Positions 2,886 to 32,558 of a stretch of DNA of 38,867 bases are shown here, one piece after another. The position numbers were made by a program, and so were the translations under genes. Source of the stretch: Reclinomonas americana ATCC 50394 (lineage: Eukaryota); assembly GCA_048213135.1 (NCBI GenBank), contig PS015575.1:1-38867 (forward strand), in the 5' to 3' direction. Each line of letters starts with the position of its first letter. The stretch's first letter is position 1. Under the pieces are notes generated by a model. That model did no database searches. It was not told where the DNA came from and saw nothing but the letters and a program-made list of their open reading frames with translations.

Positions 2886-5050
2886 ATGACACTCTCTGTT
2901 ACTAGTCTCCTCGCTGCTGCGGCTCTTGTCGTCTGCTTGCTTGCGTGCTCTGTCCATGCTGGCGGATCTGCACATGGTTTGTTCGCTATCGCTTCGTGTG
3001 TACTCGTCGGCATTGTTGCTCACCGCAGCCCGTCACAGGTCGACCAGACCCACATCATGACTCGAACATTCCAGTTGGAGGCGGCCGCTGCTCTGCGGAC
3101 TCTGACTGCAACTACAACAATGGAAGTTGCGCGCGCCCCACATCACGCAGTGTGCACTGACTTGTCTCGTACTGATCGCCCACACTCCCCGTGCAGCTTG
3201 TGTCCGTGGCCACTGTGCATGCGGCAACGGAATGATTGTCGGTCAGTGGTGCCAGGTGAGTGTACCCATCGTGCGCTTGGTGTAGTTCTCCTGCCTAACG
3301 AATGTCGATCGATGGATGGCAAACACAGTGCCGACCGACTCAGACCGACGGCGTGTGCAAAGAAATGCCAAAGATGTACCTCGTCCACAACGTGTGTGTC
3401 AGTGCTGAACTGTGTGTGACGGTGACGGAGAATGAGCGACGCGGATTCCTGTCTGGAGGACAGCTGGTTTCCGACTGGAATGAGGAAGCGTTGCGTGTCA
3501 CTGATGAGAGCTTCAATTGATTTTTCATATATTTTTTCTCACGAGTCGCTGCGTACAGCATGCTCTGCGTCAAATCGTCGACCATGGGCCCGCCAGACGC
3601 TGCTCGTATGCTTGGCATGTTGCACTTGGCCATGCACGACGCCGCTCAGAACGTGCCGGGTGGACAAGTTGAGTCTCGCGCACGCGTGCGCTGCTGTCGT
3701 TCTCATGCTAGAAGCACTCACTCTTCCCTCCTCAGTACAAGAAATACAAGTACTCGCTGTCGTCTCGCGTGCCTCACGACGCCTCTCGCGAAGCTGCTTG
3801 TGCAAAGGCGGCGCGCGACTTGCTGTACCACGCATTCCCCGATCGCCAGTCGTTCCTCGATGATCGCCTCACCAAGCACCTCAGCGCATTGCGCCAGTCG
3901 GGAGCCAGCAAGGTACAATCGATGTGTGATGCTGTTTCTTCTTTCCCAGAAAACTCACCCCACACAACAGTCGGCTGGAGTGTCTATCGGCGCACAGATT
4001 GCCGCCACAGTCATTGCCGATCGCACAAATGACGGTGCATCGCTCCAGCCGCTGCCGTACGTCGTGCATCCGGAGGTGGGCTTCTACAAGCTCACGCCGC
4101 CGGGATTCCTGCAGCCGGCGGCGCAGCAGTACGCTCACGTGCTGCCGTTCACCATGACGGCGACGGACATGTTCCGGTTGACGCCGGACTCGCCGTTCTA
4201 CTCGGACGAGCTGAAGAAGCAAGCACCCTTCAATCCGACTGAATTCGTCAAGAGTGCCGCGTACACCAGCGCGTGGCAGGAAGTCAGTGCTTACGGTGGC
4301 CAAAGCAGCTCCGTGCGCACCGCCGACCAGGGGAACAGTGCGCTCTTTTGGCGCGTGGATCCGACTCCCGATCATGGCGTCATCACGCCTCCGGGTTTGC
4401 ACAATGTGCAAGCGCAGCAGTTTGTGGTGGCCCACAACTGCGACCTGCAGGTACGGACAACTCTTTGCAGTTTTTTACCGCGCGAGACTTGTTTTATCTC
4501 AGACACCCCTTGCTCATGTGCGCGCGCACAGAAAGCGGCTCGTATCTTTGCCCTGTTGAATATGGGGCTGCTCGATGGGGCCGTCATGGCGTGGGACATG
4601 AAGGTTTGTAACATGCAGCTTGTCCTTTGTTCCTAAAAGTGTCTGAGCGCAGCGCCGTGTGCGTAGATCTACTTCAACTTTTGGCGCCCGGTGACTGGCA
4701 TTCAACTGGCCAACACGGACAGCAACTCGGACACCTCGCCTGACTCCTCGTGGCAGTCGTACATTGTGACACCGAACCACGAGTCGACGCCCTCCGGTCA
4801 CTCGACGTTTGCCGGCGTGGGCGCCACCGTTCTCGGCCGTTTCTTCGATGACGCGACGCCCTTCACGCAGGAGGCTGACGAATTCCCCGGCATGTGGCGT
4901 CGGTGGGGCTCACTGAACGAGGCCGCGGAGGAGGATGGCCAATCGCGCATCTTGGGCGGTGTGCACTGGCAGTTCGACAACCAGATCGGTCTGACGTCGG
5001 GCCGTCTGCTGGCCAACTACGTCTGCGACAATTACCTGACACCCAACTGA
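2886..5050 (+). CDS. Vanadium-dependent haloperoxidase-like protein, copy 1 (signal peptide + Cys-rich/EGF-like region + PAP2/VHPO domain)
   Basis: Nine exons and a hydrophobic N-terminus. Contains WNEEAM..PPDAARMLGMLHLAMHDA and the vanadate-site motifs K-IYFNFW-RP, HESTPSGH and SRILGGVH. Confidence 0.9.
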
Positions 5051-6115
5051 GCAGCATGCAGCGCCCCCTGTTTCTCTCTGTGTTTTTCCATTGAACGAAA
5101 AGTACCTTCCATGTCTTGAGGATTTGCTGTATGCGCTCGGGTCGGTCTCCTCGGCGTGTGCTCGAAAGTTCTCTGCACAGCGCATGCATGCACACACACA
5201 CACACGCGCGCGCGCGCTCCAAGAAGAGGCCGCACACACCTTTCGGATATCGCGTGTTGTACCCTCGCACCGATGTCGGCACTTTCGTGTTCGCCACATG
5301 CAGTGCGTAGCGGTACAGCGAACGTGCTTCACTCAACAGCGATGCAGGCTGCCACTCGGCTTGCCATTGCACGACGAATAGGCAGAATGTCCGTCCGTCC
5401 CTTGTCTCTTCTCACGCGCCACCATGTGCAGAGGAGAATGCACGCGACGCCGTTGCACTGCTCACACATCGCGAGGCAGATGATGGAGTCGTTGACGACG
5501 ATGCAGAGCGTAATGTGCGTTGCGCTCGTTGTTCCGATCCCTCTCCCACTCTCTTCTTGACACACACTCGTGACCACACAGAGACTTTTACCGTGTGCGT
5601 GCGACTCAGCGCATGCGTCGTCGACTGCCGTGACGTGTGTCTCTTCTTGGCTGTCTGCGGCGCGCGCCGTCATGTTGGTGATGGGTGTTGTGTGGTGGAC
5701 GCGTGACTGTGCGCATGCGCAGCGGCAGTTGCGCAGCGCTGCGTGGTGTCATCTGTCTTCTGTTGTTGTGTTGATTCGAGCCCGCACACAGTATGTGTTT
5801 TGCCGGGATTCTATGCTGTGTTTGTGCTGGTGATGTGATGGCGAAGGACGGCAAGGCTTCTCCATTCGTCGCTTGCCGCAGTGGCGAGTTTGGAGAGCAG
5901 ATCCGATGATCGCTGTCCCGCCCGCGTACGCCCAGAACTCGCACTGCCTTTGTGTGCCGAGATGCGTGGCCTCTCCCACGAAGAGCGTTCTGGAAAGGCA
6001 ACAGGCCATTACAGAAGGTTTTTCCTGTACGGTGATTTTTTCGCGCGCATTTCTTCCTCGTAACGGCTTTCAGTCCTCTTTTTTTCCTCGGTGCGAGAGA
6101 TAGTGCAAGTGTGTA

Positions 6116-7583
6116 ATGCGATTAACACAGTTGCTGGTTGCAGTGACACTGTTGTTGACGGTTTTGCTCGTCACCTTCACGTTGACGAATGCTGGTGAGT
6201 CGCCTCGTGCTGCTGTGGTGTTTTGTTGTCTGTCACGTTTTCGCGCGCGCGCGCGACTGTGGCACGTGCAATCTCGTTCTCGTGCTCACCCCTGTATAAT
6301 TCTCTTGTGCTTCTGCTGTGATCTCTCAGACGCGGATGTGGAGACGGATGGTGAGAGACACGCGCAAAGTTGATAGCTTGGTCTCGTTTTGTTCACTTCT
6401 GCGCGGGAAATCATGATCAATGATTCGCCTATGCACACGCATGCACGTGCACACAATGGTGCCTCCGCTATACTCTTCTCTGACTCTCTGGCGCATAGCA
6501 GTGACCGAGGCAGCAGAGGACTTTGGTGAGCTGGAGGATGATGATTTGTTTACTGAAGTCGACGATGGAAGGTTGCCGGTGAGACTGAACTCTACTTCTC
6601 GTCTGTTTGTTTATCAATGTGATCTCTCACGTGCGATTTCCAGCGTGGTCCGCCCGGCGATGACGGCAAGCCAGGCAGAGACAGCAAGGTTTGGAGACAC
6701 ACGCGCACATGCACACATCGTAGTGACCGTCACTCATTGATAACTGTGTCGCAGGCTGGTCCTCGTGGCTCCGCCGGTTCCCCAGGAAAGCCAGGCAAAC
6801 ATGGCAAGGTGCAGTCGCTCAACTCCGTGCACGGTGCAACTCGATTGATGCCGCTGTTGCTGACACGCACTCTCCACGCACAGCGCGGCAAATCTGGCGC
6901 GCGTGGCAAACCAGGCAAGGTGTGGTGGTGGTGGTAGTGTTGTTTACGCACGGCTGAGGTAGGTGGCATGTTGACTTGATTGCATCGTGTCGTAGAGTGG
7001 TCGCAGACCGCCTGGAAAAAACGGCAAAGATGGATCGGTTTGTGTTGCCTGGCGCTTGTCCTCCTCGGCTCGCTTGCCCCCACTCACTCATGCATCTTGC
7101 GCGTGCAGCACGGAGCTCCTGGTCCGCACGGACCATCAGGTGACGACCGGAAGGTGAGGACGGCGATCTTGTGTGTCTGCCTGCTTTCCTGATGTTGCTC
7201 GTTCTCTCACGTTGCACTTTTCTCAGCCCGGCAGGAATGGCAACGACGGCAAGGCTGGACGGGTTTGTCCTTCCTCGTGTACATGCCATGTTGATGATCG
7301 ACTACTTGTACTCACTGTGCGCACATGTAGCCGAGACCTGCCGGTCTTCGTGGCCCTTCCGGCCACCGCGGCAAGCGCGGCAAGGTGAGTGTGTCAGTAG
7401 CATGGCATGCTACGCTTTGTGGTGTTCATGCATGCTCCTCAGCGTGGACATCCCAGCTGCAGTCGCGATAGCAAGGATGGTGAAAATGGATTGTTATGTG
7501 TTGGTGTGCCTGACGACTCTTGTGCTGACCGTTGACTTTCTTTCCAGTCGGGCAAGGACGGCACAGACGACGCTCCCGGCAAG
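6116..7583 (+). CDS. Secreted collagen-like (Gly-X-Y) micro-exon gene, partly degenerate and 3'-truncated or fused to VHPO copy 2
   Basis: Signal exon 6116-6194, then acidic exons 6330-6350 and 6499-6578. GXY exons follow at 6644-6688, 6755-6808, 6884-6919, 6996-7037, 7109-7153, 7227-7262, 7331-7384, 7443-~7493 and 7548-7583 (e.g. AGPRGSAGSPGKPGKHGK). Several Gly positions are substituted. Confidence 0.8.
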
Positions 7584-7719
7584 GTACACCTTCCCCTGCC
7601 TGTTATCTGCGCATATTGCGACACAGTAGCACTCGTTCACAACAGTTGATCTAGTCGTGTAGCGCACATCCTCGCATCTGCACGTTTTTTTGTTTTCTAA
7701 CGGTCTTTACTCTGCGCAG

Positions 7720-9793
7720 ACTCACACTACTTCGATCCCAGCATCCCCAAAGGCGGTGGCGCATGCAGCACCAAGGCCAACTGTAACAACAATGGCTGTT
7801 GCGTTCATGTCGTCGTCGCGCGTCGTGTGGATGATTCTGTCTTACCGGTTGTCAAACTCTGTGCACAGCATGCGTGGCCGGCAAGTGTGTGTGCGGCAAG
7901 GGCATGATCGCTGGCCTCTGGTGCCAGGTGCCAATCTCTCTCTCGGCGATGCAAGTGACTGTGCTGGAGACTCACCGCTCCTGTATTCATGTGATGCAGT
8001 GCCGTCCGACGCAGACCGACGGCGTGTGCCGCTTGCGGGAAAAAATGTACCTCGTGCACGATGTGTGCGTGGCCGCCGATGTGTGTGTGGCCACCACGCA
8101 AGCGGAGCGCGCCAGCACGCTCACGGGCGCACAGCTGGTCTCGCAGTGGAACGATGCAGCGTTGCGCCACTTGTTGTCTTTCTTGTTTCCGCGCGCTTTT
8201 CTGTTGTTTTGACGCGGGCATGCAGCATGAAATCGATCAAGGCGAACCAGATGCCGCCGCCCGACGCGGCGCGTATGTTGGCCATTATGCACCTAGCCAT
8301 GCACGATGCCATCCAGAACGTCCCTGGCGGTCGGGTGCGTTTCTCTTCGGTCACCAACGGTCGCATTGGCGATCGTCGGTGTTTATCTTCAGTCGCTCAC
8401 CACACCCTCTCTCTCCCCAACCACGCAGTACAAGAAGTACAAGTACGTAGCCACGCAGTGCAACAAGTACGTAACCACGAAGTACAAGAAGCGCAAGCAC
8501 GTGACCGGCAGCACTCCGGCTGCCAACACATCCCGTGAGGCTGCCGCCGCTCAGGCCGCCCATGACGCTCTCTGCTTCTTCTTCGCCGCCCGCAAGCCGG
8601 TGTTGGATGCTCTGCTGGCACAGCACCTGGCGACGATCGCCGACGGCGCATCCAAGGTTTGCGACGCTCTCTTAATCTTCCCCTCCCCTCACCTCACTCG
8701 CGCCGCGCAGACGCAGGGCATCGCGCTCGGATCCACCATTGCCGCCATGATTCTGGCCGATCGTGCCACCGATGGCGTGTCGAACCCAGCGCCGCCATAC
8801 GTTGTGAATCCCGCCGTCGGCTACTACAAGCTGACGCCGCCCAGCTTTGGCCAGCCGGTGGCGCAACAGTACCCGTTTGTGCGACCGTTCGCCATGCTCA
8901 CGCAGGGCATGTTCCGCATCACACCGTCGTCTCCGTTGTACTCGGACTACATCAAGTCCACAACGCCGTTCAACCCGACCACCTTTGTCACGACAGCGGC
9001 CTACACCACCGCCTTCCAGGAGGCAAAGGACTATGGAAGTGCGAACAGCACCAAGCGCACCGCTGATCAGGCGCAGACTGCTCTCTTTTGGCGCGTCGAT
9101 CCAGTCGGCACCGCCCAAGTCATCACACCGCCGGGCCTGCACAACACTCAGACACAGCAGTTTGTGCTGGCTCACAACCGCGACCTGCAAGACGCGGCAC
9201 GCATCTTTGCGCTGCTGAACATGTCGCTGGCCGACGCGGCCATCATGTGCTGGGACATGAAGGTTTGTTGCTGCCCTCTTGCATCCCGATCGCAGGCACA
9301 GACTGCTCGCAAATGCCTTACACAATCGTGTGTCTTCGTGCAGCTGAACCTGAACTTCTGGCGCCCGGTGACTGGCATCAGCAATGCTGACATTGACAAC
9401 AACCCGTCGACCGCCAAGGACGCTTCATGGAGCTCGTACATTATCACGCCGCCGCACCAGTCCACGCCGTCGGGACACTCGAGTTTTGCTGGCGCTGGTG
9501 CCACCGTCTTGGCAGCGTTCTTCGACGAGGAGACTCCGTTGCGTCGCGATCGTGGTCGAGTATCTGAGAGAGGTTGTCGCTCACAAGTATACTACTTCCA
9601 TAGGTGGACGCAAGAGGCCGACGAGTTTGTCGGCATGTGGCGCCGCTGGGGATCGCTGTGGGAGGCAGCCGCCGAGAACGGCCAGTCGCGCATCTATGGC
9701 GGTGTGCACTGGCAGTTCGACAACCAGATCGGTCTTACGTCGGGCCGTCTGCTGGCCAACTACGTCTGCGATAATTATCTGACACCCAACTGA
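7720..9793 (+). CDS. Vanadium-dependent haloperoxidase-like protein, copy 2 (no signal-peptide exon of its own)
   Basis: Near-identical to copy 3 from about 7671 onward. Motifs K-LNLNFW-RP, HQSTPSGH and SRIYGGVH are present and the frame stays open after splicing. Confidence 0.85.
8421..8504 (+). repeat. Degenerate triplication of a splice acceptor/exon start in VHPO copy 2
   Basis: Units 8421-8450, 8451-8474 and 8475-8504 each start CCACG(C/A)AG, adding 54 nt relative to copy 3. Confidence 0.85.
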
Positions 9794-9906
9794 GCATGCA
9801 GCAGCATGCAACCTGTTTCTCTTTGTTTTTCCATTGAACGAAACAGACCTTCTTGTATCGAGGACAATCTCATTCTCATTTTGGTTTGAGTTGGAGAGAA
9901 GAAGAG

Positions 9907-12125
9907 ATGATCCACCACCGGTTTTCCGCGTGTGCATTCGTTGCCGTGCTGGCCTTTCTGCTGTTGGCCGCCTGCACTGTTGGTGCGCTTGCCCTCACTC
10001 TCTCGCGCTCTCTCTCCTTCCCACACACGCACGTGTGCGAATCCCACCTCGCATCTGCACGTTTTTTTGTAACGGTCTTTCCTCTGCTCAGACGCACGCT
10101 ACCTCGATCCCAGCATCCCCAATGGCGGTGGTGCCTGCAGCACCAACGCCGACTGCAACTATAACAACGGCTGTTGCGTTCTTGTTGTCGTCTGCGTGCA
10201 CGCTCACCATATGGATGATTCTGTCTTACCGGTTGACAAACTCTGTGCACAGCATGCGTGGCCGGCAAGTGTGTGTGCGGCAATGACATGATCGCCGGCC
10301 TCTGGTGCCAGGTGCCACTCTCTCTCGGCGATGCAAGTCACTGTGCTGGCGACTCACCGCTCCTGTATTCATGTGATGCAGTGCCGTCCGACGCAGACCG
10401 ACGGCGTGTGCCGCATGCTGCCCAAGATGTACCTCGTGCACAATGTGTGCGTGGCCGCCGACGTGTGTGTGGCCACCACGCAAGCGGAGCGCGCCAGCAC
10501 GCTCACGGGCGCACAGCTGGTCTCGCAGTGGAATGATGCAGCGTTGCGCCACTTGTTGTCTTTCTTGTTTCCGCGCGCTTTTTCTGTTGTTTTGACGCGG
10601 GCATGCAGCATGAAATCGATCAAGGCGAACCAGATGCCGCCGCCCGACGCGGCGCGTATGTTGGCCATTATGCACCTAGCCATGTACGATGCCATCCAGA
10701 ACGTCCCTGGCGGTCGGGTGCGTTTCTCTTCGGTCACCAACGGTCGCTGTCGCGATCGTCGGTGTTTATCTTCAATCGCTCACCACACCCTCTCTCTCTC
10801 CAACCACGCAGTACAAGAAGTACAAGTACGTGGCCGGCAGCACTCCGGCTGCCAACACATCCCGTGAGGCTGCCGCCGCTCAGGCCGCCCATGACGCTCT
10901 CTGCTTCTTCTTCGCCGCCCGCAAGCCGGTGTTGGATGCTCTGCTGGCACAGCACCTGGCGACAGTCGCCGATGGCGCGCCCAAGGTTTGCGACGCTCTC
11001 TTAATCTTCCCCTCCCCTCACCTCACTCGCGCCGCGCAGACGCAGGGCATCGCACTCGGATCCGCCATTGCCGCCATGATTCTGGCCGATCGTGCCACCG
11101 ATGGCGTGTCGAACTCGGCGCCGCCATACGTGGTGAATCCCGCCGTCGGCTACTACAAGCTGACGCCGCCCAGCTTTGGCCAGCCTGTGGCGCAACAGTA
11201 CCCGTCGGTGCGACCGTTCACCATGCTCACGCAGGGCATGTTCCGCATCACACCGTCGTCGCCGTTGTACTCGGACTACGTCAAGTCCACGACGCCGTTC
11301 AACCCGACCACCTTTGTCACGACTGCGGCCTACACCACTGCCTTCCAGGAGGTCAAGGACTATGGAAGCGCGAACAGCACCAAGCGCACCGCTGATCAGG
11401 CGCAGACTGCTCTCTTTTGGCGCGTCGATCCAGTCGGCACCGCCCTTGTCATCACGCCGCCGGGCCTGCACAACACTCAGACACAGCAGTTTGTGCTGGC
11501 TCACAACCGCGACTTGCAAGATGCTGCACGCATCTTTGCGCTGCTGAACATGTCGCTGGCCGACGCGGCCATCATGTGCTGGGACATGAAGGTTTGTTGC
11601 TGCTTTCTTGCATCCCGATCGTAGGCACGGCCTGCTGGCAAATGTCTCACACGATTGGGCGTCTTCGTGCAGCTGTACTTGCAGTTCTGGCGCCCGGTGA
11701 CTGGCATCAACAATGCCGACATTGACAACAACCCGTCGACCGCCAAGGACGCTTCATGGAGCTCGTACATTATCACGCCGCCGCACCAGTCCACGCCGTC
11801 GGGACACTCGACCTTTGCAGGCACCGGTGCCACCGTCTTGGCAGCGTTCTTCGACGAGGAGACTCCGTTGCGTCGCGATCGTGGTCGAGTATCTGAGAGA
11901 GGTTGTCGCTCACAAGTATACTACTTCCATAGGTGGACGCAAGAGGCCGACGAGTTTGTCGGCATGTGGCGCCGCTGGGGATCGCTGTGGGAGGCAGCCG
12001 CCGAGAACGGCCAGTCGCGCATCTATGGTGGTGTGCACTGGCAGTTCGACAACCTTATTGGTCTGTCGTCGGGTCGCTTGCTGGGCAAGTACGTTGTCAA
12101 CAACTACCTCACCCCCAATGCGTAA
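9907..12125 (+). CDS. Vanadium-dependent haloperoxidase-like protein, copy 3
   Basis: Signal peptide MIHHRFSACAFVAVLAFLLLAACTV, Cys-rich CSTNADCNYNNGSCVAGKCVCGNDMIAGLWCQC, then K-LYLQFW-RP, HQSTPSGH and SRIYGGVH. Confidence 0.9.
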
Positions 12126-12243: not shown

Positions 12244-13642
12244 ATGTGGGCGCGAGTGCGACACACTCTCACTGCTCCACAGCGCTTTGCGTCGTTCGTG
12301 GTGAACGAAAGTGCAGGTCGTTTGTGGCGACTGTTGTGGAGACCGGCGACATATCTCCGCGTCGCCCTCCACTTGTGTGTGTTGGCCGTGGTGGCGTCGG
12401 TGGTGTGCATCATCGCCCTCGCCGTGACAGTGATGATGTATCGCTCGGTGCCCGAGTCGGTGATCGACCGCGAGCTGCACTTTGACTTTCGCGAGTTGCG
12501 CGCGGGCGATCGCAGGAACTCCTTCCACACTCGCTCTCTCACACACACGAGTGCAGATCATCGCCGATCGCCTACAGCACATTCGATGGCAGTGAGCTGT
12601 GGAAGAACACGGCCTACGATGTGTACGTGGAGCTGGACATTCCACGATCGCCGGAGAATGAACGCGTTGGTGAGTGCATCATCACCTCCGACCCGGCTTC
12701 CGCTTCTTCTTCTTCACTGACTCACACCGCGTGCGCAGGCTCGATCGTCATTGTACTGTCGCTGCAGGATGAGCGAGGCGCAGTGCTGGAGCGAGCGGTG
12801 CGCACAGTCGCCCTCAAGTATCGCAACTGGTTGGTCTCCACGGTGACCACGGTGCTGTGGGCGCCCCTGACACTGCTGGGAATGACCGACGGCGACGAGT
12901 CGCACATCTCCACACTGATGGTGCGCGGATACGTGGATCGTCACGCGCTGGTCAACCGCACCACGCTGTCCACGATGATGGTGACGCTTTCGTCGTCGAG
13001 CATTCGTCTGTACGGCGCGCGACTGCGACTGGAATCGAGACTGGGGTGGCTCGGGTGCGACGTGTTGTGCACTTGTGACTGTGGGTGGTTTCTCATCGCT
13101 CTGTTTGCAGAGGACTGCTGCAACTGTCGCCTCTTGTGTTTGCCACCACGGCCGGCATCGGCACCTTCGTCGCCCTCATGTGCCCGTACATGTGTTACTT
13201 GTGCTTTGCGGCGGCCCGTGCGCTCTTGTGGCACAGCCCCGAGGTCGACAGCGACGTCGACGACAATTACAGTGGATCGCCGAGTCCGCGCAGGTCACCG
13301 CCGAGCCCACGCAGTGCCCGACTCGCCTCCGCACCGAGTCGACGCTCTCGTGTGACCATTTCGTCGACGAGTACTTCGACCACTGCCGTGGTGGCGGCCG
13401 CGGCTCGAGCGGCACAGATCGACAGCTCTGACGATGACGACCAGCAACACCACCACCACCACCAGGGTGATGTTGGGGCCGACGATGCAGACGATCTGGA
13501 CGACGACGCGTCGGCATCGGCCCTATTTCACCGAGTGACCGAAACCGAAGTCGTGCAACAGCGAACTGTCGAACGAGTGAGCTCGGTGCGGCGAAGAAAA
13601 GCAGCTGCCGTTGGTAGTGGAAGTGGCAGCAGTAAGAGATAG
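12244..13642 (+). CDS. Seipin (BSCL2 family lipid-droplet biogenesis protein)
   Basis: Four exons. An N-terminal TM segment is followed by RELHFDF, YDVYVELDIPRSPENERVG, LKYRNWLVSTVTTVLWAPLTLLG and LYGARLRLESRL, then a second TM segment and a disordered tail. Confidence 0.85.
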
Positions 13643-13720: not shown

Positions 13721-16153
13721 ATGCTCTCCGATGAAGATCGGCAGGCGCTAACAGTCCACGTGTGTCCTCTACACCGCAACGTTGCGTGCTTCTCCACCCG
13801 CGCATTCCTCCGATCGTTCTTCTCACTCTACACACCCACTCCACAGACCGATGCGGCTCCGCTCCGTGTCTTCTTCGAATCACTGGGCGCAGTGGCCGAC
13901 TTTCTACTGATTCACAAGGACCGCTACGCATTCGCGCTGGTTCAGTTCAGCGACATTATCGGTTGCTACAATGCCCTTTCTCTCTCGGGAACCAACATCA
14001 ATGCCGGCTCCGTTGTCTCCAATCGGTGAGCTCTCTCTCACACACACACACCTGTGACATGTGCATACTACACACACACGCGCGCGTGTACACGTACATT
14101 CGTGGTGCTGACGGAGCAGACAACTCGCGTCCTTCCCAGCGTCAACATTCGTCAATCACAACAGCCGATTGTTCATCGCTCGGCTCCACCACCACCTGAC
14201 GTAACATCGCAGCCGCCTGCCAAGCCGCGGATGAATGGCGGTGGACACTCGCAGTATCGCCAGCACGCACCTCCGGCGTCATCGCCGCCACCATTACTGC
14301 TTCAATCGGCTCCACCGCTACCCTCTGCTGCTCCTGCGCCACCACCACCGCCGCCGCCACCGCCACTGTACAATCATGCTCTGTATATCCATCCCCAGCT
14401 TCATCACCACCCGCATCCGCACCACTTCCACAACGGGCATCATCCACATCACCACGCAATGCCGATGCAGTTTCATCCCCATCCCCCTCATCCTCATCAT
14501 CATCATCTTCCGCAGCATCACCTCGGTGGCCACTCGCCGCAACCACTTCCGCCTCCGCAGAGCAGTATCCTGTCGCTGCCGCCAGGTCTGCTGCCGTTCC
14601 CGATGCATACGGCCGGACCTCTGCTGCCGTCGGCGCCGCCCCTGGTTGCTTCAGCGCCACTGCTGCCGCTGGTTTCGTCACCGCCACCACCGCCGCCGCC
14701 GCCACCGCCACCACCGCCATCGGTGGTATCGGCGATGTGGCCGATGCCGCCGGCAGTGACCACCACGCCTCAAATGGCAGGTGTACCGCTGTCGCAGCAG
14801 CCGCCACCGCTATTGTCAGCATCGGCGGCGCATGCGCTGGCACAGCCGCCTCCTCTGGTGCAGCCGAGTGCACTGGTTCTGTCGCCGTACGGATCCGGGC
14901 CAGCTCTCGCTCTTTCCGCAGCTCCGCATGTGCCGTTCCCGTCGTATGCACCGATGCCCGAGAAAGTGCCGCTGTCGGACGAGTTGTACGACAGCGGTGT
15001 GCCGACAGTGAGTGGTGCGCTGCCGGAACCCGACGTACCCAACACGGTGGTGGTGAAGAATGTGGCAAATGTTGCGTCTCCTGCCGTGTGTGCATTCCTT
15101 GTCGCGGCTACCTTGTTGATCGCTTTTTCCGCAGATTCCACGCACCGAAGTGGTTCGTTTCTTTGCCGACTGCGGACCCATCATCTCATCGTCGCACAAG
15201 ACGGACGAGCGGCCCTTCTGCATCATTGGTTTCGGCTCACGACACGCCTACGAGGCGGCGTTCGAGAAGACCTCGTTGGAGATTCGCGGCCAGCAGATCA
15301 CGTTGCGTGGTCGTCTGCAGCTGTGCTATTCTGTGTCAAAATCTCTCACACAATACGTCTCTGTAGGGTGCTGCCGTACCGCAAATCGGAGCGGCAGCGA
15401 GCGCGTGAGGCAGAGAAGGAGCGCATCAAGGCACTGAAAGCGTCGCTGCTGTTGCGCTATCGCGACACGCAGGAGTCTGCCGCCGTCCACAAACCCGACT
15501 CGGAGGTCAGTGAGCACCGGTAGCCATGATGTCTTGTTTCTGACTACTAACTTTTCGTGATGCAGTCGAGCCACTCACGCCAGCTGGAGGTGGACTCGCT
15601 GCGCATGGCGTTGGAGATGCAGGCGGTCGAGATGGGTGGCGACTTTCAGGGTACGTGCTGCCACTAGTTTAGCATGTGAGCCCGATGCACTTTGTGGTGA
15701 CGGTGTGCGCGCACAGGTCCGGATGGCAGCCTGCTGCGGGAGATGTTGGCGCGCGTCTCGATGGACGAGGATCCAGTGAGCATTCCCGACACCGACGCCG
15801 ACGACGTCATGTTGCGCCGGCTCCGCTGCTGTCACTCTCTGTTGCGCCGGAGCCTAACCATTCTCTACTCTCTGTCTCGCAGCTGCTCAATCTGCTATGA
15901 CTTCCAGGCGGCGCAGCCGTGTCGCACGCTGCATTGCGGGCACGAATTCCACGACGGCTGCATCCAGGCGTGGCACACTCGCGAATGCGAAAACCTGTCG
16001 GCGGCGCACACCTGCCCACTGTGCCGTGCACCCTACATGCTGCCGAACACCGAAGCGTCGGCCGCCGCCACAGCAGCTGCCATGGCCGCCGCAGCAGCTG
16101 GACCGTCGCGACCTCCGTCCTCCCCTTCCTGTTGCTCCAAGTTCAGCTTCTGA
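13721..16153 (+). CDS. RRM - Pro/His-rich - RRM - RING-H2 protein (putative RNA-binding E3 ligase)
   Basis: RRM1 contains LRVFFESLGAV..YAFALVQF. RRM2 contains NTVVVKNV..VRFFADCGPI..FCIIGF. The RING-H2 reads CSICYDF..LHCGHEFHDGCIQAW..TCPLCR. Confidence 0.85.
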
Positions 16154-22050: not shown

Positions 22051-22103
22051 ACACCAACACCCACACCCGCACACTCTGGCACACACTCCACCTGCGTCCC
22101 TCC

Positions 22104-22151
<48 letters not shown>

Positions 22152-23976
22152 TTCCTGCACCCCCTCCCCCCTGACACACACCCGTTGACACTCGGCGTGT
22201 GCATCAACTCTGAACCACTTGGCGCCTCCGAGGCCACCGGTGTCGGCTCCTCAAAGCTACGACGCCGCTCGTGCCCGCCGGCATCCGCATCGGTTCGCCG
22301 TGGCGACACGGGATTGCTGCGTGATGCCACCGACGCCGATGATGCCGCACTCAACAATCCAGCCGCTCCAGCTGCCGCTGTTGCTGCTGTTGAGATGAAC
22401 AGAAAGCAATGAGTACAAAGCGTGCGTGTCGTCACACGCAAGGAGAGAGGAAGAACACACCGGCTACAGTTGTCGGTCCACTACCGCGCGGCTTGTGAAC
22501 CGTCCTCGCATGCAATTCCATCAGGTCCGGTCTGACCAGCACCACCACCGTCTGCGCGCACACAGAAGCATGCGTGAGCGGTGACTGTGCGGAGCTCACA
22601 TCCTCGCGCATTTACGAAACCGCATTATCAGGCAAGTAGTCGTCGTCGTCCAGATCAGCAAGGAACGGATTCAGTTCCCGGAAATCGTCCGACTTCATGC
22701 GATACATGCTGGTAATGACTCGAATCGACTCCTCCGGTGCCACCACGTGCTCCACATACATGGCTGCGCCACACACGTGGGTCTCCTACAGTAACAGACA
22801 GAAGAAGAGATGACAGTGATGACAACGTACGAGTTGGAGCCTCCTCCGGCGGCAACATGGCAGCCGCGGCGGCCACCGCGCGACGCGGCGACGACTGCAG
22901 GGTGGCAGATGGTGCATCGGCTGCACCACCCATCGACAGAGCAGGTACCGATGGCATGGAACCACTTGCCCCTGCCTCGGCGGCCGAGTCACCACCGTCG
23001 CCACCGCTGCTACGTTGGAGGGGGCAGGTCAGCACGAGAACGAAATGGAAAACCACGGCGAGAATCGGCGACGGCGGCACGCAACAGACGCGCCGAGCGC
23101 TGGAATCGCTTTCGCTTAGGCTCCGCGGCTGGAGTGGCACTTGGCGCGCTGCTCCCACACGCACAAGAGTGAGACAAGGGATGCGAATCTAACGAGCGAG
23201 CAGACGCAACGCTACATCCTTCTCCGGCGGTGCAAACACGCGCAGCACCTGGCGATTTCACACATCAGCATGTGACCAATACAAGACGGGCACCACTTCC
23301 AGATACGCGCGCACACACGCACGCACGCAACTTCACCCTCGTAGATCACACCACCACGGTGCACTTTGCTCGGATTCAAGCGCTTCAGCTGCGCCACCGA
23401 CATGTCATACAGCACCGCCACTCCCTCCAGTGTATCATACGGCGACACAATGTGGTCCACTACGGGACGCGACGGTGCTGCCGCGACAGCAGCCGCCGCC
23501 GACGATTCGTCACGAACAGGTGAAGATCCTGTTGTCGCACTGCCCTCACCAGCAGCAACAGAAGGAGGAGCAGCAGGCGGAGGCGAAGAAGGAGCATCAC
23601 CACCACCGGCACCACCAGAAGCCTCGCCTTCCTCCTCCTCCAGCAGCTCCACAGCGCCCACGTCTTGCAACTCCTCCACACTTCGCATCATCATCATCAT
23701 CATCACACAATCAGTCAATCAATGCACACACACACACACATACGCAAGATCACGCACCCCAGTGCCTCGCCCGGCACAGCACCAGCCACTGGCTTTGGCG
23801 GCGCCACTCCAAGCACCTCAATCACCCCTTGCAGAATGTTACCAAACCAGGCCCCGACTCCATGACCACGCTGCACCTCCTCCAGGCTGTCACCCTATAT
23901 ACACACACACACACAACCGCAGTCAAGACACGCACAGACACAGAGAAAGACACAGACACACACAGTCACTTACCAT
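21110..23976 (-). CDS. OXR1/NCOA7-like LysM + TLDc domain protein
   Basis: LysM reads [28 protein letters not shown]. TLDc contains [36 protein letters not shown] and [15 protein letters not shown]. The first exon is only the ATG (23974-23976), followed by GTAAGT. Confidence 0.85.
21975..22150. repeat. (CA)n and (CT)n microsatellites in an intron of the TLDc gene
   Basis: Long ACAC run at about 21998-22048 and TCTC run at about 22105-22148. Confidence 0.95.
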
Positions 23977-24065: not shown

Positions 24066-27000
24066 ATGAGCGTCCGTGGTGTTGTGATGATTGGCGGGCC
24101 GTCCAAGGGCACCCGCTTCCGCCCACTCTCACTCGACGTGCCAAAGCCGCTGTTCCCAGTCGCCGGATTGCCCATGATTGAGGTCTGTGTGTGCGCGTGT
24201 GCGTGTGTGTGGGTGCAAGCGATGTCTCTCCTCCGCGCAACCACACACACCACTCTCTGTCTGTGTGTGCGTGTGTGTGCGCGAGGTGTACCTCCGACAT
24301 GCCTCTCTTGTGTCTGTGCGCGCTTGTGTGTGTGTGTGTGTGTGGAGGGAGAGATGGTGCTGATGACGCTCTCTCTCACTCTCTTCTTCCTCTGCCATGC
24401 AGCATCACATCCGTGCACTGACCAAACTGGGAGCGGAACTGGCGGAGATTGTGTTGATCGGCTTTTATGAGGAGAGCGCCATGGAGTCCTTCATCTACGC
24501 CATGTATGATCGCTATCGTACGCGCATTCGGTGTGTGACTCCTCCTCTTCCGCCTCCTTCTCTCTCTCGCTCTCTCTGTCTGCCTGACATCCAGACGCAC
24601 AGCTACTTGAAGGAAAGTGGCGAAGTCGGCAGCGCCGGTGCGCTGTATTCCTTCCGCGAGGAGCTGCTGGCGGACGACGTTAAGCAGCTGCTGGTGTTGC
24701 ATGGCGACATTTGCTGCACGTTCCCCGTGTGTGAGCTCGTGGAGTGTCATCAGTCCAACCCGAAGGGTGCCATTGGTACGCTGGCCACCACAAGAGTCGC
24801 CAGTGACGAGCGCAGATATGGATGTGTGGTCACGCGACCGGGATCGCGCGAGGTGGTGCACTACGCCGAGAAGCCCGAGTCGTTTGTCAGTGATGTGATC
24901 AACACGGGCATGTACTGCTTCGTGGCGGCGGCGTTTGTTGAATACCTCACCGCAGTTGCGTGGGGTACACTTCGGGCTCCTCGTGGACTATCCCCTGTGT
25001 CTCACCCTTGTCTCTCGCTCTTGCCTCTCGCCCTTGTCTCTCGCTCTTGTCTCCCGCCCTTGTCCTTCTCCCCTCGTTTCTCTCTGTTTGTCTCTCCCCC
25101 TCGTCTCTCCCCCTCGTCTCTCTCGTCGCTCACCCCTTGTCTCTCGCTCTTGTCTCTCGCTCGTCTCTCGCTCTTGTCTCTCGCTCGTCTCTCGCTCTTG
25201 TCTCTCGCTCTTGTCTCTCCCCTTCGTCTCTCCCCTTCGTCACTCCCCCTCGTCACTCCCCCTCGTCACTCCCCTCGTCACTCCCCCNNNNNNNNNNNNN
25301 NNNNNNNNNNNNNNNNNNNNNNNNNNNNNNNNNNNNNNNNNNNNNNNNNNNNNNNNNNNNNNNNNNNNNNNNNNNNNNNNNNNNNNNNNNNNNNNNNNNN
25401 NNNNNNNNNNNNNNNNNNNNNNNNNNNNNNNNNNNNNNNNNNNNNNNNNNNNNNNNNNNNNNNNNNNNNNNNNNNNNNNNNNNNNNNNNNNNNNNNNNNN
25501 NNNNNNNNNNNNNNNNNNNNNNNNNNNNNNNNNNNNNNNNNNNNNNNNNNNNNNNNNNNNNNNNNNNNNNNNNNNNNNNNNNNNNNNNNNNNNNNNNNNN
25601 NNNNNNNNNNNNNNNNNNNNNNNNNNNNNNNNNNNNNNNNNNNNNNNNNNNNNNNNNNNNNNNNNNNNNNNNNNNNNNNNNNNNNNNNNNNNNNNNNNNN
25701 NNNNNNNNNNNNNNNNNNNNNNNNNNNNNNNNNNNNNNNNNNNNNNNNNNNNNNNNNNNNNNNNNNNNNNNNNNNNNNNNNNNNNNNNNNNNNNNNNNNN
25801 NNNNNNNNNNNNNNNNNNNNNNNNNNNNNNNNNNNNNNNNNNNNNNNNNNNNNNNNNNNNNNNNNNNNNNNNNNNNNNNNNNNNNNNNNNNNNNNNNNNN
25901 NNNNNNNNNNNNNNNNNNNNNNNNNNNNNNNNNNNNNNNNNNNNNNNNNNNNNNNNNNNNNNNNNNNNNNNNNNNNNNNNNNNNNNNNNNNNNNNNNNNN
26001 NNNNNNNNNNNNNNNNNNNNNNNNNNNNNNNNGTCTCTCCCCCTCCGTCTCTCCCCTCTCGTCTCTCCCCCCTCGTCTCTCCCCCCTCGTCTCTCCCCCC
26101 TCGTCTCTCCCCCCTCGTCTCTCCCCCCTCGTCTCTCCCCCTCGTCTCTCCCCCTTGTCTCTCTCTCTCTCTCATGTCCCTCACCTTCGCCCTTGCCTCT
26201 CCGCAGGTGCGCGCCATGAAGAGCCGACCATCGGCCACCGACTTGGCCGCCATTCTGGAGCTGCCGTCGAGCAACGTCATTCGCCTGGAGCAGGAGATCC
26301 TGGTGCCGTTGGCCGATCAGGGCAAGTTGTACACGTACGAGTTGCCTGGCTTCTGGTCGCAGATCAAGTCGCCGGCGTTGCGTCTCGGAAGCGCTCCCGT
26401 TTATGACTGATAATTCCTTCCCTCACCACCGCCGCCGTCACAACCGCAGTGCTGCTGTGCGGTGCTCGGCATTGTACTTGGAGCAGTACGCATTGCTCGG
26501 CTCACCCATGTTGTATTCCAAGCCGGCCGGTGCCGAGGGTCCAATCATCGTCGGCAATGTCACGATTGACGAGAACGCCGACGTGCATCCCACGGCCAAG
26601 GTGCGTGTGTTGGTGAGCGTTGAGAGTGGAAAGGGGACTCATTGGCGTCACAGATCGGACCCAATGTGTCCATTTGCGCGGGCGCCACTGTCGGCAAGGG
26701 TGTTCGAGTGGCAAACTCGATTATTCTGGAGGGTGTGCATCTGAAGGTTTCTTTAAATTTCTCTTGTCGCCACCTCCAGCATAGCCCTTCTCACCCCTGT
26801 GTACATTGGCAGGACCATTCATGTGTGTTGAACAGTATTCTGGGCTGGAACTCAACAGTAGGTCGGTGGGCGCGAGTGGAGGGCACGTTCGACCCGTCGG
26901 CGGCCAATGAGCAGATGACAATCTTTGGTGCGTGTCACGCCTTCACCATTTCACTCGCCCACGCCTCACCGGGACATGTCACACAGGTGCTGGAGTGGAG

Positions 27001-27087: not shown

Positions 27088-27213
27088 GAAAAACAACCTC
27101 GGATGCACGTCGGACACAACACGTTCGCACACATCGACTCTTTGTATTGCTTGAAATTTGCCGCCGTGGAGAGGTGACCATAAGTGAACATGGCTTGTAG
27201 TGGGTGGGATGGA

Positions 27214-28950
27214 CTATCGTCGACCGCCAGCACCTGCGCAAGAGAGAGAAAAGAGAAAAGTGAGAAGCAGGAGAAAATGCCTTTTGACAAGATGGCGCGA
27301 CAGACCTGGCGACGACGAGTAGCGACCGGCAGAGTGGTGATCCTTGCGGCCGTCGCGATGCTCGTGACTGGCGCGGAAGGCGTGATCGGGACGACCACTG
27401 CCACGTTCGCGACCACCGAAGCTGCGACCACCGCCACCTTCACCGCCTTCGCCACTCGAGCGACGGGGCGGCGCAAAGTCGCCGCCGTCGGAGCCGAAGC
27501 TGCGACGCGGGCGATACTCGCTTCCGCCACTGCGTCTTCCGTCACCACCCGACGGACGACCCCAGTTTCCGCCACTGCGTCTGCCATCACCACCAGCACC
27601 AGCCGAGGAACGCTCCCAGCTTCCACCACCACGCGAAAATCCAGGCGCACCACCGTCACGACGCGGGCGGCGTGCATCACCACCGCCGCTGCCGTACTTT
27701 GGCCCCTCACCGTCACCAAAACGGCGACGAGGAGCAGCGGCACGCTCCGCGTCGTCGCGCGGGGGACGCTGCGGACGCTCACTCGGTCCAGCCTCCTCTG
27801 AGTCCTCCTGCACTCGCGGCGGACGCGGCGTCCACGGGCGGTCACTGCGCGGCGCACGCGGCGCGTACGGCGTCGCATCAGCGGCAGGCGGAGAACGGAC
27901 GCGTGCTGTTGTGGCGGAAGCGGCAACGGCGGGAGCGGCATCAGCAGCAGCCTCTGCGCAAGGATTGAGAACGATATGGACACAGACTCTGAAAAAACAC
28001 ACGCTCCACCCCCACTCACGTCCACTGGCCGCCGGCGCCGGAGCCGAAGACNNNNNNNNNNNNNNNNNNNNNNNNNNNNNNNNNNNNNNNNNNNNNNNNN
28101 NNNNNNNNNNNNNNNNNNNNNNNNNNNNNNNNNNNNNGCACGATAGGTAAGCACCAAAGTAAGAAGGAGGAAACGGAAGAGGGAGAGGGGGAAGAGAAGA
28201 AGGAAAGAAGAAGGAAGAAGACGGAAGAAGGAGGAGGAGGAGAAGAAGGAGAAGGGGAGGAAGACGAAGGAGAGGAAGACGAAGAAGAAGAAGAAAGAGA
28301 AGAGCATGCAAGAAGAAGAAGAAGGAGAGAAGACGACAAAGAAGGAACAGAAAGGGAAGAAGAAGCAGCAGTGCGCGCAACAGCGGGGATGAGCGTCGGA
28401 GGCAGACCGAGTTGTGTAAGGCGATTTGAAAGCACAGTGCGCGCGACTTGATCCTTCAGACTGCACACACACAAAACACAGTCAAAAAACACAAGACACG
28501 CACACCACAGAGAGAGAGAGAGAGAGAGCGCAAGAGAAGAGGGTCACACCTGACAGACTCGCCACGCGGTTTGTTGTACAAAAAGAGCTGCAAAGTGTTG
28601 AGAATCGCCGGATCCCACTGCCCAAATGCCACCGGCCCCGCATCCACCTGCACCACACAATATGAGACAAGGACAGACACACACACACACTAAAGAAGAA
28701 GAAGAAAAAAACGCAACTCGGCGACCGTCCAACTCAATCACGCTACTCGGCGCCACATAATGCACCGGAGTTGTGACCAGCTGCCCATCCACGCGCACTC
28801 TGCCCTCCTGAATCGCCATCTCCGCCAGTCGCCGCGAGGCCACTCCCGCACGCGAGAGGTACTTGGTCAGACGCACAAAGCCCAGCTGCACAGACGGATG
28901 CTCCTGCTGCTCCTTGGTTGCCTCCACTGCTTGTGTGACGCAACTACGCG
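27214..28950 (-). CDS. S4-domain RsuA/RluB-family pseudouridine synthase-like protein with R/G/D-rich tail (gapped)
   Basis: S4 domain VRLTKYLSRAGVASRRLAEMAIQEGRVRVDG, then LYNKPRG..SLKDQ. The catalytic GRLD exon is not visible (gap 28052-28137). RG-rich exons end at stop 27214; joining them across the gap is inferred. Confidence 0.65.
28160..28365. repeat. Degenerate (GAA/GGA)n purine tract
   Basis: Directly visible; intronic on the minus strand. Confidence 0.85.
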
Positions 28951-29089
28951 CACCAAGCAGCGCAGGCCATGCGCGCGAGACAGGCGACAGTCGCGCCAAA
29001 CAAGCCAGCATGCNNNNNNNNNNNNNNNNNNNNNNNNNNNNNNNNNNNNNNNNNNNNNNNNNNNNNNNNNNNNNNNNNNNNNNNNNNNN

Positions 29090-30025
29090 GACTATTCGCG
29101 GTACGGTCCCCACGCTGTCCCCGTCGTCGAGGCGCTCGTCATCATGACTGTCGCCGACAGCCGGCGGTGCCTCTGCCACTGGATCCTCCGCAAACGGCGT
29201 GTACGAGGGCGGCAGCGGCTGTGGCGACGGCGACGGCGACATCTCCAGAGGCCTCACCTCATGATGCCGACGCAACTGCGCAGCCACATGAGCGCGCCGC
29301 TGCTTCAGTCCGGCCTGATGCGCGGCCACAGCAGCCGGATCCACCTTCAACGACGCATGCCGCGGCACATACAGCGGCGGCGGCACCAGCAGCGACACCG
29401 GCAGATTCTTGTTCTCCTGCAACCACGATCGCACCGCTCGCGCCGTCGACCCCGCCGTGATGCCCGGCTGTAACCTCGGCACCGTGCTCACAGGCGCCGG
29501 CAACTCCAGCGGCGGCAACGCTCCCCCACCACCACCACCACCACCACTGCAAGACGCCACATGATAAGTCACATGAAACGATACGCGCGCAACGCCTGAC
29601 GCCGAACGCAACGTGCGTGATGAGCTTGCGCGTGGCGACGGGCTCACACTACTACTGTGCAACTGGCGAGCCGACGCCTGCTTGTCGACGCGCGGTCTCG
29701 CCGCCACCGACACTGATCGCTTCCTCTCAAAGCCCGGCGGCCGCCGAAACTCGTCCTCGCTCGCCATGGTCAAGTGCGACGCCGCCGCCGCCAACACCGA
29801 CACCGTCAACGCATCCACCAGTGACGGAGAAGACGAGGACTTGTTGTGGCCAGAGGCAACTGCCGGCGGTGGTGGTGGTGGTGCTCCTGCGCGCGCCTTC
29901 TTGCGCGGAGGAGACGGTCGCTGGTGACCGCCGCCGCCGCCACGGTGGTGTCGCGTGGGCGCGTGTCCCAGACCAACAAGCATCGGAAACATGCCGCCGG
30001 CCTCACTGTCACCGTCCTCAAGCAT
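29090..30025 (-). CDS. Low-complexity hypothetical protein, 5' part; runs into gap
   Basis: An open frame of about 310 codons starts at ATG 30025 and has coding-like composition. No recognisable domain. It may or may not join the S4 gene. Confidence 0.45.
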
Positions 30026-30542
30026 TGCGCGAGAAAAGTCAACAAATAAAAACGTTCGTTATCACGCGAATTTTCTTTCTTACTTACTCTTTTTNNNNNN
30101 NNNNNNNNNNNNNNNNNNNNNNNNNNNNNNNNNNNNNNNNNNNNNNNNNNNNNNNNNNNNNNNNNNNNNNNNNNNNNNNNNNNNNNNNNNNNNNNNNNNN
30201 NNNNNNNNNNNNNNNNNNNNNNNNNNNNNNNNNNNNNNNNNNNNNNNNNNNNNNNNNNNNNNNNNNNNNNNNNNNNNNNNNNNNNNNNNNNNNNNNNNNN
30301 NNNNNNNNNNNNNNNNNNNNNNNNNNNNNNNNNNNNNNNNNNNNNNNNNNNNNNNNNNNNNNNNNNNNNNNNNNNNNNNNNNNNNNNNNNNNNNNNNNNN
30401 NNNNNNNNNNNNNNNNNNNNNNNNNNNNNNNNNNNNNNNNNNNNNNNNNNNNNNNNNNNNNNNNNNNNNNNNNNNNNNNNNNNNNNNNNNNNNNNNNNNN
30501 NNNNNNNNNNNNNNNNNNNNNNNNNNNNNNNNNNNNNNNNNN

Positions 30543-31799: not shown

Positions 31800-31940
31800 C
31801 ACACCTGCAGTGAACCGCACAGCAACACATACTGCGAAGTGCGTGGGGAAAGCGAAAGCACACAGCCGTTCGTTCACTTGCAACGCCGTGCACTTCCTTC
31901 TGATGTACATCCATTTTCTTCTCCGTCAATCCCAGTCGCG

Positions 31941-32558
31941 TTACGTCAGCGCTCCACTGCGACGATAGAAGGAGCTCTCCACCAGCTTCTGGCGGTTGAA
32001 CTTGCCCGCCTGTGGCTCCACTCCCGTGGCACGCCATCTGCGCACACAGAGAGAGAGAGATGAAGGCGGTGAGACACACACCATCATCATCAGAGAGGAT
32101 GACGGTTGACGCAACCCAATCTCCTGCGACGAGGTCTGCATGGTTCCATAGCGCTCCTGTGGCGACGCCTTCTTCTGATGCTTCAAGTACGCCGCACGAC
32201 CCTCACCCTGTGCGCGCGTGCGTGTGTGAGAGAGAGGCACGCGTGCCAGCCAATCAGGCGGAAGAACAGCCACACACAGACCTCCTTGGAGACACCCTGC
32301 GTGAGAATGTCCTTCTCGGGGCGACTGTCAATGGTGGGTCTCGCCAGCAACTCCTCATCGCGATAGGCGCGCGCCAGGTTCTCCTGGTTCTTCGCCACCA
32401 CATCCTTGGCATACATCGTCTGCCACTTCTTGATCGTCCGCTGCTCGGACTTGATCATTTGCTCAAAGGCCATAGCTGTGCAGGAGAAGTGCACGAGTGA
32501 GTGAGTGAGTGTGAGTGGAGAGCAAGCGGGTACGATGAAGACCTTCATGCGCGTCCAT
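31941..32558 (-). CDS. SPMIP1/ATP6V1FNB-like axonemal microtubule inner protein
   Basis: The spliced product contains LTQGVSKEGEGRAAYLK..PQERY..TSSQEIGW..FNRQKLVESSFYRRSG, matching the recalled family pattern GxSxxGxGRxxYL..PxEK/RY..SSxExGW..FY. Confidence 0.75.

Follow-up and report, generated by a model that had tools for sequence, protein, structure and literature searches.

The 38,867-base stretch of DNA analyzed here (contig PS015575.1; hereafter, the window) contains two kinds of 5′ splice sites, or donors. Ordinary donors follow the pattern (A)G|GTNYGT, where the bar marks the end of the exon; GTTTGT, GTGCGT, GTGAGT, and GTACGT are examples. Donors of the other class, denoted S, read N|GTTGCG(T/C). 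Within the window, the S class is well supported by the gene models and by the composition of the sequence. A tentative reading, to which we assign a probability of about 0.4, is that S donors are read by the U1 small nuclear RNA (snRNA) one base out of register, and that a U1 with G at position 5 would best explain their strict GCG. Noncanonical U1 registers are otherwise known just as rare exceptions in human genes. If the reading is true, these introns provide a natural system for studying what sets the point of cleavage under out-of-register U1 pairing, give a view of the co-evolution of snRNAs and splice signals, and show exonic sequence released from splicing constraint.

A second class of donors

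All junctions were predicted from DNA, using reading frame, paralogues, and protein-family profiles. The S class was defined as donors reading GTTGCG(T/C) plus a single GTTGAGT, and the ordinary class as all remaining donors. The curated set consists of 15 hand-built gene models, each checked for an open frame and GT-AG introns, and is biased towards genes holding the S sites claimed by an initial annotation of the window. These genes include three paralogues (A, B, and C), of which C is a near-identical tandem copy of B. The curated set has 63 donors, or 56 when gene C is left out, and the S class accounts for 24 and 21 of them, respectively.

The initial annotation had listed 23 donors reading GTTGCG(T/C) or GTTGAGT, and all 23 positions do carry the motif: 22 are GTTGCG(T/C) and the one at 3668 is GTTGAGT. 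For 18 of the 23, as judged from the sequence, the junction is fixed at that GT by frame, paralogues, or protein-family profiles. The remaining five (15811, 16448, 24955, 23210, and 28381) are plausible but unproven as S junctions. The intron has to be spliced out to keep the frame, or to eliminate a stop codon, at 3126, 3668, 7798, 8161, 10173, 12495, 15071, 15302, 18604, 26377, 23331, 23210, and 28717. Continuity with homologues or profiles is found at 8161, 9538, 26377, 32115, 13781, 15071, and 23331. All 23 S introns with a known acceptor (3′ splice site) are GT-AG introns in models consistent with the open reading frame (ORF).

The base at −1, the last of the exon, separates the two classes. 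G occupies this position in 1 of 24 S donors and in 37 of 39 ordinary donors (Fisher p = 7e-14), so the contrast that had been claimed is real. It persists when gene C is left out (1/21 vs 33/35, p = 6e-12) and when genes A and C are both left out (1/18 vs 29/31, p = 4e-10). The base before each listed S site is A, C, or T except at 32115, as had been stated. The further statement that S donors lack G at −1 holds in the sense that the preference for G is lost, while active avoidance of G is not significant (1/22 against a background of 18%, p ~0.07). G precedes GTT in just 18% of cases across the window, and thus one G among 22 S sites is not a significant depletion; among GTTGCG hexamers that are not donors, 6 of 32 follow G. 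The exception noted earlier among ordinary donors, 35291 (caa|GTGCGT), was confirmed as an ordinary donor without G at −1, and a second was found at 22830 (ctc|GTACGT).

A dependence between G at −1 and G at +5 within ordinary 5′ splice sites has reportedly been described by Burge and Karlin and by Carmel et al. The S class resembles such exon-intron compensation in that strong intronic pairing tolerates the loss of the exonic AG. It differs in that the S motif is a discrete, displaced heptamer rather than an in-register optimum.

The information content of the two classes is distributed differently. In the S class, more than 1.2 bits are found at +1 to +7 only, with none in the exon. Of the 21 non-redundant S sites, 20 share the same TGCG, +7 is T (15/21) or C (6/21), and +8 prefers G or C. 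In the ordinary class, information resides at −2 (A), −1 (G), +1, +2, and +5 (G), with 0.85 bits at +6 (T). GTTTGT is the commonest ordinary donor (8/34), GTGCGT accounts for 5/34, and +4 is a pyrimidine in 26/34 (76%).

Beyond the donor, the two classes look alike. Median intron length is 70.5 nucleotides (nt) for S and 72 nt for ordinary introns, C stands at −3 of the acceptor in 18/20 and 32/35, respectively, and the last YTVAY, identified by motif match only, lies mostly 13–25 nt upstream of the 3′ splice site in both. Given that length, acceptors, and branch-like motif are the same, S and ordinary introns are most likely removed by one and the same major spliceosome. Corresponding introns of paralogues A and B have kept GTTGCG and share nothing else, which argues from sequence comparison that the hexamer is under selection. 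A hairpin formed with an internal complement of the motif was also considered and rejected, as none of 19 S introns holds CGCAA.

Counts of the motif and a gene finder that knew nothing of it bear on abundance. Base composition predicts ~23 copies of GTTGCG on the two strands together, and 54 are present. In the 19.9 kb of curated gene spans, GTTGCGY occurs 26 times in the sense and 6 times in the antisense direction, and 22 of the 26 sense copies are donors; of the other four, 15451 and 37264 are exonic and 15841 and 37735 intronic. The gene finder scored codon usage, intron composition, and acceptor context, and required only GT of a donor. In this mode, GTTGCG began 9 of 71 introns while making up 1.1% of GT sites (binomial p = 1e-7), or 7 of 68 when paralogue families were counted once (p = 1e-5). 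A self-trained variant derived its donor tetramer from its own predictions, and GTTGCG then ranked first among donor hexamers (15/77).

The finder is noisy. Of the 23 claimed sites, 14 escaped the GT-only mode, which also committed clear errors such as choosing 8320 instead of 8335; an early version with strong intron penalties read through short in-frame introns, and a run with a donor bonus was circular and served for orientation only. Gene finders trained with a single donor matrix will likewise mispredict such genes. The earlier estimate that the class comprises a fifth to a quarter of introns is about right: its share is 19% in the self-trained output and 38% in the biased curated set, and the true value probably lies between these. 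The self-trained finder also proposed further GTTGCGT donors at 29612 (− strand; cac|GTTGCGTT) and 17537 (+ strand; ctt|GTTGCGTC), where the surrounding gene models are unchecked.

U1 register and rival explanations

The S motif is related to the ordinary donors by a simple displacement. GTTGCGT equals G, T, and the last five bases of the local optimum GTGCGT, such that its positions +3 to +7 match +2 to +6 of GUGCGU. It had been proposed that such sites are read through a shifted or bulged U1 register or, alternatively, by variant U1 or U6 snRNAs, and the latter may be the case. The formal one-base displacement stands; a plain shift on a standard U1 leaves the strict GCG unexplained. This follows from duplexes computed for donor positions −4 to +10 paired with the 5′ end of U1, whose standard form is the one printed in the available text of PMC4856993. 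On the standard end, ordinary donors pair canonically with a mean of −7.1 kcal/mol, whereas S sites average −1.5 kcal/mol and have no consistent register; hence the failure of the plain shift.

A U1 carrying G at position 5 (G5 U1) behaves differently. This end was modeled by placing the core ACGUAC in the usual flanks, which are assumed. With it, all 19 computed GTTGCG sites are predicted to form the pairs +3:A7, +4:U6, +5:G5, and +6:C4, with a mean of −4.9 kcal/mol, and sites with U at +7 add the pair +7:A3. The two ordinary donors without G at −1, 35291 (GTGCGT, −7.6 kcal/mol) and 22830 (GTACGT, −7.3 kcal/mol), are the best in-register matches to the same end. A G5 U1 would therefore account for C at +5 of S donors, for the pyrimidine at +4 of ordinary donors, and for the tolerance of GTGCGT and GTACGT without G at −1.

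In the proposed mechanism, U1 would read S sites by pairing inside the intron, at positions +3 to +7 (UGCGU). These five bases are GUGCGU minus its first G, which would place the helix one base downstream of the usual register. U+2 may be either unpaired opposite C8, in a shifted helix, or bulged out; G+1 would then lie opposite C9 in the shifted case and opposite C8 if U+2 is bulged. With G at position 5 of U1, C+5 would be Watson-Crick paired, which best explains the strict GCG. The intronic helix would make the exonic AG dispensable. Cleavage would stay at GT, presumably fixed later by U6 and U5.

The donors at 8657, 10986, and 36926 read AG|GTTTGCG, in which the GCG block lies two bases further downstream than in GTGCG. 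Here, too, the duplex program pairs GCG with U6-G5-C4 of the G5 U1. Taken with the other donors, these predictions hint at a series of 0, +1, and +2 displacements.

Shifted and single-base bulge U1 registers have been proven in human cells, where they are rare. According to the available text of PMC4856993, noncanonical registers were validated for 1.5% of 201,541 5′ splice sites, and the +2/+3 bulge register is predicted at 68 sites. The human +1 shifted GUUAAGU type of Roca and Krainer, as far as it is described there, shares with the S class a one-base downstream displacement of the local consensus, uridines at +2 and +3, cleavage at GU, and an intronic helix to +7, which in the window is predicted. 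The human sites differ in their frequency (1.5% vs ~19–38% of the introns examined here) and in their block (AAG vs GCG). The earlier claim that the class is abundant here, by comparison with the rare human registers, thus agrees with these figures.

Variation in U1 itself has been reported in a preprint by Roy and Bowser (10.1101/2022.06.08.495308), the accessible portion of which describes an Entamoeba U1 (ACAAAC) matching GUUUGU donors, a candidate U1 of Mastigamoeba balamuthi reading ACGUAC with a preferred donor GUGCGC, both standard and modified U1 variants in Physarum, and a standard U1 alongside C at +4 in Thecamonas. The co-evolution of U1 and donor reported there for Archamoebae has likenesses in the window, where ordinary donors most often read GTTTGT and usually have a pyrimidine at +4. 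With G5 in U1, C at +4 in ordinary donors as well as C at +5 in S donors would be accounted for. The window is ~59% G+C, and M. balamuthi is 60.7% G+C and reported to lack the minor spliceosome (available text of PMC8136499). In contrast to the window and its two donor signals, the portion of the preprint at hand gives one donor consensus per species, and the strings GUUG, "bulge," and "shifted" are absent from it. Searches for GUUGCG, GTTGCG, or GTTTGT with splice terms, with subscription journals outside the coverage, brought up nothing but primers and unrelated human cases. On Mastigamoeba, U1 snRNA, and donor, the preprint was the sole relevant result. No description of the S class was found in the literature searched.

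Several observations weigh against out-of-register pairing with a G5 U1. Donors of the form non-G|GTRCGT would pair better in register, yet there are 2 of these versus 23 S sites without G at −1. Pairing with U10 predicts A at −1, though no excess of A is found there (6/21). The S duplexes are weaker than the ordinary ones even with G5 (−4.9 vs −8.7 kcal/mol). Shifted analogues of GTTTGT, GTACGT, and GTGTGT are absent among the curated donors, with GTTGAGT occurring once. GTGCGC, the donor preferred by M. balamuthi according to the preprint, is found at no curated donor of the window, and the link to the M. balamuthi U1 is therefore weak. Given the scarcity of non-G|GTRCGT, the missing excess of A, and the weak S duplexes, a second, dedicated U1 is a serious rival, if on balance a doubtful one. 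Its 5′ end, such as ACGCAAC, would form seven in-register base pairs with GUUGCGU, and S would be a separate class. The invariant TGCG without exon information and the absence of the shifted analogues also fit a dedicated U1. Both the perfect 7-nt pairing of the Entamoeba U1 and the coexistence of standard and modified U1 in Physarum offer parallels in the accessible preprint text (10.1101/2022.06.08.495308). The second U1 is hypothetical, however, and would need a base change plus an insertion in a very conserved segment. A switch of class between paralogues at one intron position (3668, described below) is as easily explained by a shift, and the one clear U1 candidate that the same text reports in M. 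balamuthi would count against a second if the DNA came from that species. A broader proposal is that the major spliceosome here uses two 5′ splice-site codes, in which about a quarter of introns would be read by a second U1 complementary to GUUGCGU or, if there is one U1, by obligatory out-of-register pairing, the class being freed from exonic constraint; we regard it as unlikely.

Recognition that depends little on U1 pairing is less probable still. In this view, a protein such as U1C or a TIA-1/NAM8-like factor would bind UUGCG, or recognition would take place mainly at the U6/U5 stage, and the likeness to GTGCGT would be a coincidence. The weak duplexes predicted at S sites with both versions of U1 are in keeping with this, and a NAM8/TIA-1 candidate is reported for Entamoeba in the available part of the preprint (10.1101/2022.06.08.495308). 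Nonetheless, moving the local optimum by one base gives exactly this motif, and the preference for G or C at +8 of S donors resembles the G-rich +7 of ordinary donors. To our knowledge, no protein with UUGCG specificity has been described. It is very improbable that the class is an artefact of the gene models, with many of the GTs unused and the segments coding or the junctions elsewhere. Length is divisible by three in seven of 20 S introns (and in 16 of 35 ordinary introns), several of these introns contain no in-frame stop, and five sites have no support independent of these DNA-based models. Against this stand the 13 sites where removal is needed for frame or stop, the continuity with profiles or homologues at the seven sites named above, the paralogous introns that differ by a 1-nt indel, the absence of the 9538 segment from paralogue A, and the 26 to 6 ratio of sense to antisense GTTGCGY. 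The least probable of these explanations is a footprint of introners (mobile elements) or a divergent minor-spliceosome class. U12-type introns and some introners do share with the S class a rigid 5′ motif inside the intron and the lack of an exon consensus. U12-type introns have the 5′ consensus RTATCCTT and the branch consensus TCCTTAAC, and S introns depart from them in motif (GTTGCGY), branch site, and acceptor context, with branch-like motifs and acceptors as in the ordinary introns. An introner family was rejected on an all-against-all blastn comparison of intron bodies, which gave only short, microsatellite-like, low-complexity matches beyond +8 and no enrichment of S-to-S matches; the absence of CGCAA from S introns also speaks against it. 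The reported lack of a minor spliceosome in M. balamuthi (available text of PMC8136499) would bear on the matter only if the DNA came from that species.

Support at individual junctions

The paralogues A, B, and C carry S introns at shared positions on the + strand. In gene A, the intron at 3126..3196 (gaa|GTTGCGC, phase 1, 71 nt) is needed for the frame and is matched in position and phase in B and C. The corresponding intron of gene B, at 7798..7868 (gct|GTTGCGT, 71 nt), is likewise needed for the frame; its 6 first nt are common with the intron of A and the remainder is unrelated. That of gene C, at 10173..10252 (gct|GTTGCGT, 80 nt), was chosen by the GT-only finder and is ORF-consistent. 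The next intron of A, 3490..3558 (agc|GTTGCGT), shares its position with 8161 and 10543, and the spliced protein reads WNEEA|MLCVK..PPDAAR, as in the family. Removal of 8161..8225 (agc|GTTGCGC, 65 nt) from gene B is needed for the frame and yields a protein that aligns gap-free with a hidden Markov model (HMM) profile of PAP2-like proteins built from 30 homologues. Its paralogue in C, 10543..10608 (agc|GTTGCGC, 66 nt), was chosen by the GT-only finder, and the two introns differ by a 1-nt indel.

The sole GTTGAGT donor belongs to the intron 3668..3735 of gene A (caa|GTTGAGT, 68 nt), which is needed for the frame. At this position, B and C carry cgg|GTGCGT instead. The last S intron of gene B, 9538..9603 (tcc|GTTGCGT, 66 nt), is in frame and open. 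The spliced protein scores 429.6 bits against the HMM, versus 415.5 bits with the intron retained as a 21-residue insert, and paralogue A has no insert at the equivalent position. The intron 11867..11932 of gene C (tcc|GTTGCGT) is identical to that at 9538 and was chosen by the GT-only finder. In gene A, the exon is continuous near 4900, where this intron has no counterpart; it may represent either a gain in B and C or a loss in A.

Several + strand junctions elsewhere are placed by protein domains. The seipin gene has an intron at 12495..12556 (cga|GTTGCGC, 62 nt) that is needed for the frame; its donor is the sole GT nearby, and the exon that follows matches positions 39–74 of the Seipin profile. 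In a gene for a protein with two RRMs, the intron 13781..13846 (aac|GTTGCGT, 66 nt) is in frame and open. Its downstream exon enters the RRM_1 profile near position 10, and the end of the upstream exon, VHVCPLHRN, fits RNP2. The second RRM is interrupted in the same manner by 15071..15134 (aat|GTTGCGT, 64 nt), which is needed for the frame: the exon that follows enters the RRM_1 profile near position 10, and the RNP2-like VVVKNVAN closes the exon before. The same gene contains 15302..15366 (cac|GTTGCGT, 65 nt), also needed for the frame. Use of the alternative donor in the same phase, the GT at 15323, would leave an intron of 44 nt, an atypical length here.

The introns 15811..15882 (cat|GTTGCGC, 72 nt), of the RING-finger gene, and 16448..16537 (tct|GTTGCGC, 90 nt), of a leucine-rich repeat (LRR) gene, are plausible; both are in frame and open, without homology across the junction. 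The former has intron-like composition and a CAG acceptor immediately 5′ of the RING domain; for the latter, the sole phase-compatible acceptor is the CCAG at 16537. A second copy of GTTGCGCCGG lies 30 nt downstream of 15811, at 15841, in the same phase, and the copies flank a GGCTCC/GGAGCC inverted pair. From its sequence, 15841 could be an alternative S-type donor adding 10 codons. In a gene for a low-complexity protein, 18604..18681 (ctc|GTTGCGT, 78 nt) has an in-frame stop inside, and its donor is the sole same-phase GT before that stop.

Two S introns lie in the gene for a mannose-1-phosphate guanylyltransferase-like protein. Removal of 26377..26449 (ggc|GTTGCGT, 73 nt) is needed for the frame and gives a protein that aligns gap-free with 6 homologues. 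The intron 24955..26206 (gca|GTTGCGT, 1252 nt) is plausible; its junction falls in a variable region of the alignment, and a same-phase GT at 24937 is an alternative. This long intron consists of CT-rich tandem repeats around the gap 25288–26032, and nearly all other introns measure 53–94 nt.

On the − strand, the LysM gene contains three S introns. That at 23249..23331 (gaa|GTTGCGT, 83 nt) is needed for the frame. Three residues before the junction, the LysM profile has reached position 35 of 43, and its last strand comes from the next exon, which begins VLRVF; an alternative GTGCGT 9 nt downstream would add 3 residues. The intron 23149..23210 (agc|GTTGCGT, 62 nt) is plausible and ORF-consistent, in a stretch of low-complexity protein that lends no homology support. 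The third, 23007..23085 (tct|GTTGCGT), is additional to those listed earlier; it is ORF-consistent and was chosen by the self-trained finder. At its end (23007–23012), TAG and CAG acceptors stand in tandem 3 nt apart, both in frame.

The S4-domain pseudouridine synthase gene, also on the − strand, has an intron at 28648..28717 (cga|GTTGCGT, 70 nt) that is needed for the frame, with the S4 domain in the upstream exon. Its donor at 28375..28381 (gct|GTTGCGC) is plausible, the acceptor having been lost in the gap 28052–28137. The exon stops where the catalytic motif should come, and a CT-rich tract and this gap lie downstream. In the region 28052–28381, the gene shows an S4 domain and a long Arg/Gly-rich tail but no visible exons for the catalytic domain; the gap or the CT-rich tract probably contains them. 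The remaining − strand intron, 32038..32115 (tgg|GTTGCGT, 78 nt), is in frame and open in the SPMIP1 gene and is the sole S intron after G. Its flanking exons match positions 61–89 and 92–118 of the Pfam SPMIP1 profile, which makes the junction continuous.

Genes of the window

The window is ~59% G+C, has eight N gaps, and contains densely packed eukaryotic genes with many short introns. An Rfam scan of the window gave no match at the gathering score. Besides the seipin, two-RRM, RING-finger, LRR, guanylyltransferase-like, pseudouridine synthase, and LysM genes, there is the SPMIP1 gene, whose product is a flagellar microtubule inner protein. Matches to Pfam back the assignments of seipin, S4, LysM, RING, SPMIP1, RRM, LRR, and NTP_transferase. 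The best matches of window proteins in a protein-database search are 47–48% identical, with none near-identical, and a search with a 355-residue exon found no match. The best named relative of the guanylyltransferase-like protein comes from an amoebozoan transcriptome. By its genes and composition, the window derives from a flagellate eukaryote rich in introns and in G+C. M. balamuthi, a relative of Entamoeba with these same traits, was considered as a source: the similar G+C content, its reported lack of a minor spliceosome, the flagellar gene, the amoebozoan best named match, and the absence of a self-match in the protein collections spoke for it, and the absence of GTGCGC among the curated donors spoke against it. 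Thecamonas seemed an improbable source, as its proteome is public and would have been expected to yield a match.

Genes A (3041–5050), B (7713–9793), and C (10092–12125) encode PAP2/vanadium-haloperoxidase-like paralogues with a Cys-rich, EGF-like N-terminus. B and C are tandem copies with one intron 100% identical between them, and A is more distant. The closest database relatives of these genes include bacterial "phosphatase PAP2 family" proteins. Given these relatives and the N-terminus, a horizontal origin followed by fusion is possible.

A very long gene for a coiled-coil protein (33216–38867) has 15 ordinary introns and no S intron, and its exons end mostly in CAG, GAG, or AAG. Microsatellites, namely (GT)n/(CA)n and CT-rich repeats, supply the commonest hexamers across the window.

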